Positions 19,248 to 45,636 of a stretch of DNA of 64,000 nucleotides are shown one piece after another. Where the stretch lies: contig JAILRZ010000049.1 of the NCBI GenBank assembly GCA_024697845.1, positions 11,404 to 75,403 on the forward strand, in the 5' to 3' direction. The notes below the pieces were generated by a model. The model made no database searches and was not told the DNA's origin. It was given only the letters and a program-made list of their open reading frames with translations. Position numbers and translations under genes: made by a program. Source of the stretch: Eubacterium sp. (GTDB lineage: Bacteria > Bacillota > Clostridia > Lachnospirales > Lachnospiraceae). How positions within the stretch are numbered: the first letter of the stretch is position 1; every line of letters starts with the position of its first letter.

Positions 19248-19347
19248 CTCTTATTGATCAGCAAATGCTGCTCGGGTAGGCACCTTCCTCATCGGGGGTT
19301 GCCGTGGCTTCATCGATCCTTGTATCTCCGCCATCTCTTAATAAGAG
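19248..19347 (-). ncRNA. SAM-I (S-box) riboswitch
   Basis: Minus strand CTCTTATTAAGAGATGGCGGAG...GATGAAGCCACGGCAACC...GGTGCCTACCCGAGCAG...CTGATCAATAAGAG; P1 CTCTTATT/AATAAGAG; directly upstream of metK. Confidence 0.93.
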
Positions 19348-21620: not shown

Positions 21621-23609
21621 TTATCTTTGATTTCTAAACTGCACCGGTGTCATTCCATATTTCTTTTTAAACAACCGGATAAAATGTTCCACATCCTGAT
21701 ACCCAACCGCATCAGAAATCGCCTCAACCGTCATGCTGCTTCCTTTCAGCAGTGTTCTGGCTTTTTTCATTCGCACATTTTTCACCAACTCACCAAAGGT
21801 CTTTCCTGACTTCGCCTTAATATACTTTGACAGATACGGCTTAGATAAGTGGAATTCCTCTGCTAGTTCGTCCAAAGTCACCGTAAGGTAGTTGGTGTTA
21901 ATAAAATTTTTGATTTCCGTTAACCTTTCGTCCTGTTCTCCGTTTTTTCCAATGGATGTAAGATACTGGTTTACCGCAACTGTCAATGCCTGGATAGATG
22001 CCTTAATTATATCCGCATCAATTCCTACTCCCCAGAACATTGTTCCGTTACAGCTAATTCCTACATAAGCAACAGCCTTTGAAGAAGAACCTCTGGAAAG
22101 TGAATGTTCTTCATAGACTGAAAGTTCATAACTGATATCAAAGAACTGCTTAAAAGCATTACTTACTGCATCTAAACGTCCATTTCCTGTACTCTTTACA
22201 ACTCTTGCTTCATCTTTACGTGCAATCGTAACTTCTGCAACAATCCCATCTTTCTGTTCAAAATGAGCTTCCGGAACACTAAACACCGAATTGTCATTGA
22301 CATACTTATCCTCAAAAATCTGGTGTACCCATTCTGGTGAAAGTTCTTTATGTTCCTTATCCGATACATCTTTTACTGTGTAACCAACATTTTCTCTCAT
22401 CTTTTCCGGTAATGACAATCCAAAGTTCTGCTTTAAGATATAGCTTACCCCACCCTTACCGGACTGACTATTAATACGAATAACATCTGAATCGTAAGTT
22501 CTTCCAACATCTACCGGATCAATTGGAAGATACGGTACGGTCCAATGACCATCCGGATTTTTTTCTCTACAAGCCATTCCTTTTGCAATGGCATCCTGAT
22601 GAGAACCTGAGAATGCTGTAAACACAAGCTCACCGGCATATGGCTGACGTGGGCTTACCTGCATTCTTGTTACACGTTCGTAAAGTTCACAAATCTGTGG
22701 CATATTGCTGAAGTCCAGCTTCGGATCTACACCATGAGAGAACATATTCATTGCCAATGTAATAATATCGACATTTCCTGTTCTTTCTCCATTTCCAAAT
22801 AATGTACCTTCAATTCTGTCTGCACCTGCAAGAACACTCAGTTCTGCTGTTGCCACACCACATCCTCTATCATTGTGAGGATGTACAGAGATGGTAACGG
22901 CATCACGATACTTTAAGTTCTTATGCATATATTCCACTTGCGTTGCAAATACATGAGGCATCGCATTTTCTACGGTTGCAGGAATATTGATAATAACCTT
23001 ATTTTCCTTCTTTGGCTGCCATACATCTAACACTGCATTACATACATCTAATGCATAGTCCACCTCAGTTCCCGGAAAACTTTCCGGACTATATTCAAAG
23101 GAAAAGTTTCCTTCAATTTCATCTGCAAGCTTCTTTAATAATTCTGCACCATCCACAGCAATCTTCATCACTTCTTCTTTACTCTTTTTAAATACCTGTT
23201 CACGCTGTGCAACAGATGTTGAATTGTAAAGGTGAATTACTGCATGTTTTGCACCCTTAACGGCTTCGAAAGTTTTCTTGATAATGTGTTCTCTTGCCTG
23301 TGTTAATACCTGAACAGTTACATCATCAGGAATCATATCACGTTCAATTAACGCACGCATAAATTTATATTCAGTTTCTGAAGCAGCTGGAAAACCTACT
23401 TCAATTTCCTTAAATCCAATATCTACAAGCATCTTGAAGAATTCTAATTTTTCTTCTAAGCTCATTGGCTCAATCAGTGCCTGATTTCCATCACGTAAGT
23501 CGACACTACACCAGATTGGTGCTTCTGTAATATATTCCTTCTTCACCCAATCATAGGTTGGTGTCGGTGGCATAAAATATTGTCTTTGATACTTCTTATA
23601 ATTCATCAT
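21621..23609 (-). CDS. leuA: 2-isopropylmalate synthase fused to a C-terminal AraC-type HTH domain
   Basis: [33 protein letters not shown] and INSQSGKGG motifs plus the regulatory domain (GNGRLDA). Last 103 aa are an AraC double HTH. Confidence 0.93.
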
Positions 23610-23662
23610 CTTTTTATTCTCCTTTTCAGCTTATCCATTCTAACTCTATTTTTCCACTTTGT

Positions 23663-24116
23663 AAACGAAAAACGCCTCTGCGTTTTCATTCAAAAACACA
23701 GAGACGTAAGCTTTACTACGCGGTACCACTCTGATTCAAACCATAATCCGAGGATTACGGTAAGCACTCATTGATGTTTAACCATCACTTCATATAACGG
23801 TGAAAACCGTCCAAACCTACACATTTCCTACGCAATTGGTAACAAATACTTGTAGCTCGCATATATATATCATCCTTCGGATGATAATGCTCGCGTAGGT
23901 TATCAATTGCTTCGCAATTGGTAACAAATACTTGTAGCTCGCATATATATATCATCCTTCGGATGATAATGCTCGCGCAGGTTATCAATTGCTTCGCAAT
24001 TGGTAACAAACTTCAGTCGGAAGCTCCGGGACGAGTTCACTAAATATGGCCTGCTGTCTTCCACCAACCGACAACTCTCTGTAAGACTTTTTCCAGCTAC
24101 TATTTCCCATCAACGC
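23663..24116 (-). ncRNA. T-box riboswitch leader with Leu (CUC) specifier
   Basis: Stem I with AGTAG, ACAGAGAG, GGTGGAA and GAA-CTC-GTC specifier (24033-24035); CCGTTA box; T-box AGAGTGGTACCGCG (23719-23732); terminator 23663-23707; upstream of leuA. Confidence 0.92.
23831..24010. repeat. 82-bp tandem repeat, about 2.2 copies, hairpin-rich
   Basis: Units start at 23831, 23913 and 23995 (partial); one mismatch between the full copies; contain AATTGC-TTC-GCAATT and ATCATCC-TTC-GGATGAT. Confidence 0.95.
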
Positions 24117-24371
24117 CATTTAATTTTTTAGGATATCTGTACTATATCATATGCTTCACAAGAATAGTAGTGATAAATTTAATCAGTTTTATTGATTTTT
24201 TTTATCATTAGTGTGAGAATGACTTCCAAATCCAAGAAATCGGATTGCATTTATGCAAAATCCAGTTTCTTGGGTTTGGAAAATCAAGCGACGCTTGAAC
24301 AGCGAGATGAAGCGAAGCGAAATCAAGCCGTCTCGTTCTATTTGGGCACGAGTTGTCTCGTGCCGTTTAAC

Positions 24372-24517
24372 GATAGTAGTATTTCTTGGAATTCGAACTT
24401 CCGCTACTATCTTTTCCCTCTAACACTAGTAGCATATCTGAAGATTCCTGACTTCCACTACTATCTTTTTCCTCTAACACTAGTAGCATATCTGAAGATT
24501 CCTGATTTCCGCTACTA
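24372..24517. repeat. 53/54-bp tandem repeat, about 2.7 copies
   Basis: TAGTAG stem starts at 24374, 24427 and 24481; 24397-24450 and 24451-24504 are nearly identical. Confidence 0.9.
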
Positions 24518-45373: not shown

Positions 45374-45636
45374 ACACGCGGTCAGTTTTGTGAATATCTC
45401 ATAAGCGTTACCTTTACAGTTAACTCGGTCCAGGCACCCTTATGTCACTCAGAAGATCACTGCTTAGTGCTGCTACATTCCTGTCCTGACACGGTTCGCA
45501 GGTCTCTGATGCATAAGACCCGGACGTCAACATCACTTATAAAGGGCAGCCCTACAAAACAAACCCGAGACTGACCATCACCCCTGCTATAGCGGATTGC
45601 AGGTACAGGGCGCCGCTACCTCCCCGGCTGCGTGGA
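45374..45636 (-). ncRNA. ffs: Signal recognition particle RNA, large Firmicutes type with Alu domain
   Basis: Minus strand GGGGAGGTAGCGGCGCCCTGTACCTGCAATCCGCT (Alu), GAACCGTGTCAGG-ACAGGAATGT-AGCAGC (helix 8) and 5'/3' CACGC/GCGTG pairing; lies between tadA and dnaX. Confidence 0.95.

Follow-up and report, generated by a model that had tools for sequence, protein, structure and literature searches.

In a 64,000-nt stretch of Eubacterium sp. DNA (Lachnospiraceae; assembly GCA_024697845.1, contig JAILRZ010000049.1, positions 11,404 to 75,403; hereafter the window, whose own numbering is used throughout), the leucine-responsive T-box leader of leuA carries an array of 82-nt tandem repeats within the loop of its Stem II. 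We consider it likely that this 180-nt block is a member of a dispersed, structured and non-coding repeat of the REP/BOX type (that is, akin to repetitive extragenic palindromic (REP) and BOX elements), which resides in a permissive riboswitch loop and whose copy number changes by slippage. A first-pass annotation, made from the sequence of the window, had proposed a unit like a REP or a MITE (miniature inverted-repeat transposable element) inserted in a riboswitch and was right in kind, as related units occur at unrelated loci and reach at least 26 to at least 130 copies in other Clostridia metagenome-assembled genomes (MAGs). The family is apparently an undescribed one of gut Lachnospiraceae-type bacteria and other Clostridia, although the kind of element is known.

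Anatomy of the array and its leader

Tandem Repeats Finder delimits the array to 23831-24010 (period 82, 2.2 copies, 98% matches, no indels), in agreement with the extent and unit length given by the first-pass annotation. Read on the minus strand, as are all features of the leader, it consists of two full 82-nt units and 16 nt of a third copy of the first hairpin (hp1), and it has no counterpart in the T-boxes of the genus or in the strain contig L129 described below. The two full copies are 98.8% identical and differ at a single base (G23978 versus A23896, minus-strand reading), so the duplication is recent.

Each unit holds two hairpins. The first (hp1; 23981-24007 in unit 1 and 23899-23925 in unit 2, with covariance model scores of 56.5 and 57.5 bits) is built from 4 bp, a C.A mismatch, 7 bp and a triloop (GTTAC C AATTGC GAA GCAATT G A TAAC; as RNA, GUUAC-C-AAUUGC GAA GCAAUU-G-A-UAAC, which holds GCGAAGC). 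The second (hp2; 23937-23976 in unit 1) has weak outer pairs (GC and GCAU/AUGC), an inner stem (ATCATCC GAA GGATGAT; as RNA, AUCAUCC GAA GGAUGAU) and an A/U-rich 3′ bulge, and recurs in unit 2 (23855-23894) with the linker base A23896 as the sole difference by Tandem Repeats Finder and sequence comparison. A truncated hp1 (GTTACCAATTGCG, 23831-23843) terminates the array, and a full or partial hp1 is the usual array end in the family. The folds bear out the two hairpins with TTC/GAA triloops of the first-pass annotation, the triloops being GAA on the minus strand, on which the T-box is also read, and TTC on the plus strand. The four hairpins of the array are stable local structures (−24.5 kcal/mol per unit) that also appear in the centroid fold of the whole leader, and no terminator-like or promoter-like sites were found inside the array. 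Two other readings of this segment were set aside: a small open reading frame (ORF; 23785-24009) lacks support and the unit length is not divisible by three, and the 7 nt by which the linker (CUACGCG) could pair with the antiterminator (CGCGUAG) were dropped, as about three such matches are expected by chance in the leader.

The leader itself (23697..24122; Stem I, specifier loop, Stem II, IIA/B, Stem III and antiterminator/terminator) matches the T-box model of Rfam, RF00230, with 110.4 bits against a gathering score of 93 (24122..23697). Model positions 1-219 are all matched, and the alignment contains one insertion, of 190 nt, in the Stem II loop between CUUCCGACUGAAG and GGUUUGGACGGUUUUCACCGUUA. 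In the 5′-to-3′ direction of the RNA, Stem I with the specifier is followed by GAGCUUCCGACUGAAG, the array, UGUAGGUUUGGA, IIA/B with CCGUUA, Stem III, AGAGUGGUACCGCG (the T-box sequence by model alignment), the terminator and a run of Us. The specifier codon CUC (Leu; 24033..24035, in the context GAA-CUC-G) was placed by the Rfam alignment and by GAACUC, which is invariant in orthologues, and agrees with the pathway of the downstream gene leuA. The 5′ strand of Stem II (24011..24024) includes the S-turn half CUGAAG (Rfam structure line; CUGAA is invariant in orthologues), and its 3′ strand (23811..23822) the other half, UGUAGG (Rfam alignment and orthologues). Downstream lie the F-box CCGUUA of the IIA/B pseudoknot (23795..23800; Rfam alignment, invariant in orthologues) and the T-box sequence/antiterminator with the intrinsic terminator (23667..23738; stem 23707-23672 and U tract; Rfam and terminator analysis). 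The core motifs (that is, the S-turn flanks, F-box, T-box sequence and terminator) are all intact and invariant among orthologues, and the RF00230 alignment together with the orthologues confirms the proposed position of the array at the apex of Stem II, with the functional motifs spared.

Orthologous leaders and a conspecific allele without the array

Orthologues of the leuA T-box are present in at least 20 species of the genus and can be aligned from promoter to start codon. The Stem II apex is the sole part of the leader that varies freely among them: CUGAAR and GUGUAGG stand just 11-22 nt apart, as illustrated by the GAUUGCGAAAGCAAAC-type hairpins of G007 and G013 and by ACAGGGAAUGUU of G015, and a gap comparable to the array insertion was found in no other representative of the genus.

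An exact look-up of LeuA and two metagenome pattern scans for strain variants gave no matches, and a variant was reached via the members of the LeuA 90% protein cluster. This variant, L129, is a Logan contig from run SRR1587748 that shares approximately 97% identity with the window across 3 kb, long stretches of it at 100%, and therefore comes from the same species. Its T-box lacks the array, reads CTGAAG-TTTGTTACCAA-ATGTGTAGG and has an apex of 13 nt. Aligned with this allele (CTGAAG TTTGTTACCAA | ATGTGTAGG), the window has 175 extra nt (23825..23999), the boundaries of which are ambiguous by a 2-nt AA microhomology. The insertion of the array is lineage-specific, polymorphic within the species and not fixed and, because a conspecific allele without it exists, the array is dispensable. 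As supposed in the first-pass annotation, the unit is neither single-copy nor fixed, given the variable arrays across the family and the conspecific contig that lacks one.

The 11 nt TTTGTTACCAA of the short allele match the beginning of the repeat unit exactly. On comparing the sequences, we favour a deletion scar left by an element-bearing ancestor, both because the 3′ flank of the array in the window (AGGAAAUGUGUAGG) resembles the native GGGAAUGUUGUGUAGG of G015 and because the gatC-gatA locus of G011 and G007 shows obvious partial deletions of a family member. Alternatively, the element may have been copied into a site that already resembled its own hp1 arm.

A dispersed two-hairpin family

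A genome-wide BLAST search with the 82-mer, as suggested in the first-pass annotation, returned the T-box locus alone from the 2.4-Mb draft to which the window belongs, but a covariance model of hp1 (R1; 39 positions, 11 pairs) recovered one further locus besides the T-box copies (56-57 bits), which brings the genome to two loci with four full hp1 in total. This second array (contig C65:4480-4643; 2 × 82 nt, 33 bits each) lies between gatC and gatA in sense orientation and shares the layout and the 82-nt length of the T-box unit; its stems are different and its two copies have clearly diverged. The same gatC-gatA site holds one unit in G017 and G001 and apparent deletion scars in G011 and G007. 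Elsewhere among congeners, hp1 occurs at unrelated intergenic sites (gatC-gatA in G017, V-ATPase K-E in G046, and gpsA-cls in G016, G018 and G046).

Scanning 185,579 species genomes for the exact pattern GTWACCAATT-N7-AATTGRTWAC yielded 29 stretches. Seventeen come from MAGs of Eubacterium, Lachnospiraceae, Clostridium and Acutalibacteraceae, in almost every case with CTGC (or CTAC) and a further hairpin next in line. The remaining 12, from unrelated non-Clostridia phyla, are without CTGC and hp2, and their number is about at chance level (expectation, roughly 9 or more). Within the genus, R1 has matches in 10 of 34 genomes; G005 alone has 17, which form at least five tandem arrays with a 79-86-nt period, plus single copies. 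Eight MAGs taken from the pattern matches contain at least 9, 26, 34, 50, 52, 57, 81 and 130 R1 matches, respectively, all of them lower bounds, with 150 candidates scored per genome. By comparison, 200 further genomes, sampled evenly across the order, contained one match under stricter filters. The family has a patchy taxonomic distribution, being plentiful in a few lineages but rare in that of the window; the proposed repeat nature of the unit thus holds as regards a dispersed family, but not as regards high copy number in its own genome, which has two loci only. In MAGs (G005, G050 and G056), many arrays are found within 50-150 nt of where a contig ends, and the repeats therefore recurrently break assemblies, such that copy counts are underestimated.

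All copies examined are intergenic, mostly between co-directional genes, and approximately 13 are in sense and 6 in antisense orientation to the flanking genes. GC skew tracks gene direction in these regions and provides no independent readout of the replication strand.

The order of parts within a unit is hp1 (GTWACCAAT...ATTGATWAC), a CUGC or CUAC linker, a nested hp2, UAC and then an A/U-rich tail. Of the two hairpins, hp1 is an imperfect extragenic palindrome of 27-31 nt with a C.A mismatch, in which the base is conserved in sequence (GTWAC / C.A mismatch / CAAT...ATTG / TWAC) and the top, with its triloop, covaries freely. The outer stem of hp2 measures 8-9 bp, is usually TYG...CRA and is unrelated in sequence between loci; it encloses a 5-6-bp hairpin (often AUCNNN GAA NNNGAU) and a 6-8-nt A/U-rich 3′ bulge. 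Arrays take the form (hp1-hp2)n-hp1, commonly with 1-4 units and with the final hp1 full or truncated, and repeat in direct tandem with an overall period of 62-88 nt (many MAG matches at 62-64 or 81-88 nt); inverted neighbours were seen in variants of G050 and G056 only, and the other arrays are direct. This two-hairpin architecture is the minimum free energy (MFE) fold in all 19 of 19 units examined, each of which folds alone, and it is maintained by covariation, with 3-5 canonical pair types across 17 loci at hp1 apical positions 4-7 and hp2 outer positions 3-8.

C(GAA)G triloops, a type known to be unusually stable in DNA (PMC13037366, PMC3201870), are frequent in both hairpins. The GCGAAGC motif, which the first-pass annotation had singled out, did not prove to be a defining feature, given that the hp1 loop is GAA in 8 of the 17 loci and that its two closing pairs covary freely. 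The T-box unit is slightly degenerate, as its hp2 retains just GC and GCAU/AUGC in the outer stem, which is the weakest such stem among the units examined. Its linker (GCGAGC...GCGAGCUAC, or GCGAGC...GCGAGCTAC) is found again in a variant of another MAG, G050.

Two further loci join a family member to a structured RNA. At L144 (G020:C20:29000-31200, approximately 1063-1235), a family member and an unrelated 49-nt × 2 repeat, antisense to the downstream gene, occupy the interval from a purine riboswitch aptamer (RF00167, 53 bits) to that gene's start codon, which is a second case of such repeats within a riboswitch-controlled leader. At L147 (G049:C1, approximately 1003-1041), an hp1 of the family immediately adjoins a 6S RNA gene (RF00013, 62 bits) on its 3′ side.

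Searches for a partner enzyme or a known class

The first-pass annotation linked the unit to HUH enzymes, and in particular to REP-associated tyrosine transposases (RAYTs), a connection that found no backing. No Y1_Tnp/RAYT gene (PF01797) scored over the cut-off in the genome of the window, in G050 or in G055 (the latter pair with at least 81 and at least 26 copies), no hp1 was present within 1.5 kb of the Y1 genes at six Y1 loci, and TnpB was absent from five of six genomes tested. A RAYT or IS200 partner was rejected on the first two of these grounds, and an origin from TnpB/omega-RNA on the third. Rfam searches gave no family match at E values of up to 1 on six family loci and no match to the repeat at the gathering score on the window and 18 further loci; the repeat had no match in plasmid and phage collections, and a literature search with hp1 strings and for Lachnospiraceae repeats returned nothing relevant from the searchable papers. 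Comparison of the filled and the empty allele at the T-box site revealed neither terminal inverted repeats beyond the internal hairpins nor a clean target-site duplication. The block also does not have the form of a MITE: a 2-nt AA bounds the 175 nt by which the two alleles differ, and TTTGTTACCAA does not represent a duplication of the flank.

Other candidate classes were discarded. The ‘spacers’ of a supposed clustered regularly interspaced short palindromic repeat (CRISPR) array are the conserved hp2, identical within arrays, and dozens of short arrays are dispersed per genome; the order of the GTT/AAC boxes is the reverse of that in an integron attC site; a CodY box (AATTTTCWGAAAATT) has 6 of 15 mismatches in the T-box hp1, and the family loci are functionally unrelated; and a binding site for the AraC domain fused to LeuA is likewise at odds with the unrelated family loci. 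Measured against REP/RAYT systems, the family has the palindrome and lacks high copy number (approximately 100 or more) in the window's own genome, a RAYT and the organization of bacterial interspersed mosaic elements (BIMEs). It has no TnpA/TnpB partner and its hp1 is unlike its hp2, which separates it from the palindrome-associated transposable elements (PATEs) derived from IS200/IS605. It does behave as a BOX-like module, with a variable tandem number and folding that is independent of the flanks.

Interpretation and alternatives

We propose that the repeat inserted into the apical loop of Stem II, a place that is distal to the S-turn and that varies freely among orthologues. Given that the four hairpins are predicted to fold locally, Stem I, the specifier, the S-turn, the IIA/B pseudoknot and the antiterminator/terminator switch would still be able to form, and the leader presumably remains a Leu-tRNA(GAG)-sensing attenuator of leuA with an extra domain of approximately 175 nt. 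The near-identical copies probably arose when the 82-nt repeats underwent slipped-strand events or unequal recombination, which could equally remove copies. The added length (approximately 175 nt) would lend extra transcription time between the capture of tRNA by Stem I and the antiterminator decision. Most likely, the insertion is near-neutral, or else mildly deleterious or modulating, and its effect on antitermination is probably small.

Several observations weigh against this interpretation. The distal closing helix of Stem II comprises approximately four weak pairs (GUUU/AAAU), which might impair formation of the S-turn, and the MFE fold of the isolated region is without a canonical Stem II, albeit from programs that cannot model S-turns. 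Neither a mobilizing enzyme nor a target-site duplication or terminal inverted repeat was found, and mobility is suggested by the patchy distribution and by presence or absence between strains. Moreover, a simple insertion leaves the 11-nt identity of TTTGTTACCAA between the empty allele and the 5′ end of the element unexplained. Finally, both the exact number of units and the function of the T-box with its insert are read from an assembled draft sequence.

The array might instead be an adaptive module, kept because it alters T-box output (for example, through a longer window for tRNA binding, recruitment of an RNA-binding protein or RNase, or stabilization of the leader) and tuned by its copy number. 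The covariation that conserves the architecture, the frequency of family members within operons and 5′ leaders, the modest prevalence of sense orientation (approximately 13:6), the member between a purine riboswitch aptamer and its gene, and the reported ability of BOX modules to alter the expression of neighbours (PMC3049150) are all in line with such a role. We nevertheless think it unlikely, as the array is missing from a conspecific strain, apices are short in all other representatives of the genus, both orientations occur (so that an RNA-sense function is not general), the T-box unit has the weakest hp2 outer stem of the units examined, and the 98.8% identity of the copies marks the duplication as recent. 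The conservation of the basal 9-10 bp per arm across genera, around a variable centre, and the location of sites near promoters and ribosome-binding sites could also be accommodated if hp1 were a double-stranded DNA operator of a dimeric regulator (half-sites GTWACCAATT / AATTGATWAC), with the arrays as clusters of binding sites that influence transcription of adjacent genes, in this leader as a roadblock. This we rate as quite improbable: the spacing of the conserved arms varies (centre of 5-16 nt), the centre is self-complementary through compensatory changes and so fits a hairpin and not a spacer, hp1 is always followed, at a fixed distance, by a second hairpin that is conserved in structure and variable in sequence, and no shared function links the loci (gatCA, V-ATPase, rplK, metA and 6S).

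Mis-assembly of a real element into a 2.2-copy structure deserves mention for a short-read MAG, given that the draft has 210 contigs and that family arrays are often found at contig ends in other MAGs. Here, however, one base distinguishes the copies, the array lies in the interior of an 88.9-kb contig of the draft (2.4 Mb), arrays in many independent assemblies have 2-4 units as a rule and the gatC-gatA copies of the same genome are clearly diverged, which leaves little room for an artefact. Least credible of all is a local origin, in which a native extension of Stem II was duplicated in place and bears no relation to the dispersed element. The apex GAUUGCGAAAGCAAAC of the sister species G007 does resemble the top of hp1, and the conspecific apex carries UUUGUUACCAA, which equals the 5′ base of hp1; however, the hp1-CUGC-hp2-UAC unit at unrelated loci and in unrelated genomes contradicts such an origin, as does the variant with the GCGAGC...GCGAGCTAC linker in another MAG.

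Beyond the dispersed REP/BOX-like repeat that we favour, a more far-reaching scenario can be envisioned, in which a new family spreads horizontally and within genomes by a hairpin-dependent route that involves neither RAYT nor TnpA/TnpB (perhaps homology- or template-switch-guided copying into sites that resemble the hp1 arm), survives preferentially in the loops of structured leaders (T-box Stem II and purine riboswitch) and, through its copy number, acts as a heritable and reversible modifier of riboswitch kinetics. Such copying is hinted at by the identity of TTTGTTACCAA at the T-box apex; taken as a whole, we regard this scenario as doubtful.

For T-boxes, the locus represents a natural experiment in which approximately 175 nt of folded foreign RNA have apparently been accepted, as opposed to the 13-nt apex in the conspecific strain, and the two alleles make an isogenic-like pair for probing how the distance or time from Stem I to the antiterminator affects attenuation. 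For genome biology, it points to a two-hairpin family that is kept by covariation and is very abundant in some uncultured gut Clostridia, with no recognizable transposase partner. No paradigm is changed, as repeats in leaders, even in T-box leaders, were already known, yet the case is unusually clean in that the repeat lies inside a T-box and not merely beside one.

The regulated gene and neighbouring features

The gene under control, leuA (21621..23609, minus strand), encodes a long-form 2-isopropylmalate synthase with a C-terminal AraC-type helix-turn-helix domain (NCBIfam NF002991, 816 bits; AraC-family matches on residues 547-661). This architecture of 660-670 amino acids (PF00682, PF08502, PF12833 and PF00165) is shared by the best 120 of 8000 homologues, which come from across Lachnospiraceae and from Acetobacterium. 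Between the T-box terminator and the leuA start codon lies a sigma-70-like TTTACA-17-TAGAAT (23637-23665, minus strand) that, because it is kept in G007, G013 and G011, is a possible second promoter of leuA, independent of the T-box. Compared with the window, leuA of L129 is a mosaic with 100% identical flanks around a central block of approximately 900 nt at approximately 90% identity (alignment columns of approximately 730-1620), and this arrangement suggests homologous recombination between strains within the gene.

Upstream, between the uidA terminator and the T-box promoter, is a separate tandem repeat (24397-24517; 54 nt × 2.2, 94% identical) with weak relatives (79%) at two places on contig C56 of the same genome. 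A near-perfect long palindrome (CCAAATCCAAGAAATCGGATTGCAT..ATGCAAAATCCAGTTTCTTGGGTTTGG, 24228-24283) is present as one copy in the genome, and the GC-rich segment next to it (24284-24365) is conserved in G013-type strains. Ordinary RNAs of the window include an S-adenosylmethionine (SAM) riboswitch (19248-19347, minus strand; 71 bits) and a large signal recognition particle (SRP) RNA (45374-45635, minus strand; 161 bits).

Comparison with known systems

As with the palindromes of IS200/IS605 elements and with attC sites, any function of the family as DNA would need a folded single strand, and a conserved stem base and a mismatch are common to all of them. The family differs from IS200/IS605 in that it has no TnpA or TnpB partner, and from attC in that its GTT/AAC boxes stand in the opposite order and its orientation is not tied to the G-rich coding strand. 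The likeness to REP and BIME is broader and extends to a short, imperfect palindrome that has a mismatch and whose base is conserved, an extragenic location, clustered composite arrays, a patchy distribution and dozens to more than 100 copies in some genomes. However, the arrays of the family are direct tandems of a bipartite unit, whereas orientation alternates in BIMEs; a GTAG-type 5′ tetranucleotide as in REP is not evident, and the genome of the window has two loci only. Unlike RAYT systems, several genomes with high copy numbers of the family have no Y1/RAYT gene, and the Y1 genes examined have no adjoining hp1.

Mycobacterial interspersed repetitive units (MIRUs) are tandem units of roughly 50-100 bp that are dispersed in the intergenic regions of operons, vary in copy number between strains and have short overlapping ORFs, with translational coupling, as the basis of their design. 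Hairpins, by contrast, define the 82-nt unit, whose length is not divisible by three, and the likeness lies in tandem, dispersed units of variable number.

With regard to the T-box, the Stem II region is known to span from approximately 10 to 200 nt, and the S-turn is its functional element, which buttresses the specifier-anticodon duplex (PMC7583486). Lineage-specific insertions are tolerated, as exemplified by stem Sa of staphylococcal glyS T-boxes (PMC9177973), which is similar to the array in being an additional helical domain with which the core mechanism copes. Stem Sa, however, belongs to the terminator/antiterminator domain, is conserved genus-wide and did not come from a dispersed repeat, whereas the array is polymorphic within the species.

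The BOX elements of Streptococcus pneumoniae (boxA-boxB(n)-boxC) share with the family a Firmicute host, a modular and structured build, an internal module of variable tandem number and transcription within leaders. BOX modules have been reported to change the expression of neighbouring genes, and gain and loss by slippage are documented for boxB arrays (PMC3049150). One BOX element lies between the two T-boxes of the pneumococcal trp leader, where regulation apparently still works (PMC3049150); the present array, by contrast, is inside a single T-box, in its Stem II loop. The terminal modules of BOX resemble inverted repeats of insertion sequences, of which none are evident in the family, and Rfam scans and literature sequence searches, in which no BOX sequences were compared directly, revealed no similarity in sequence. 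In its behaviour, the family groups with REP, BOX and MIRU-type small interspersed repeats, and BOX is its closest analogue.

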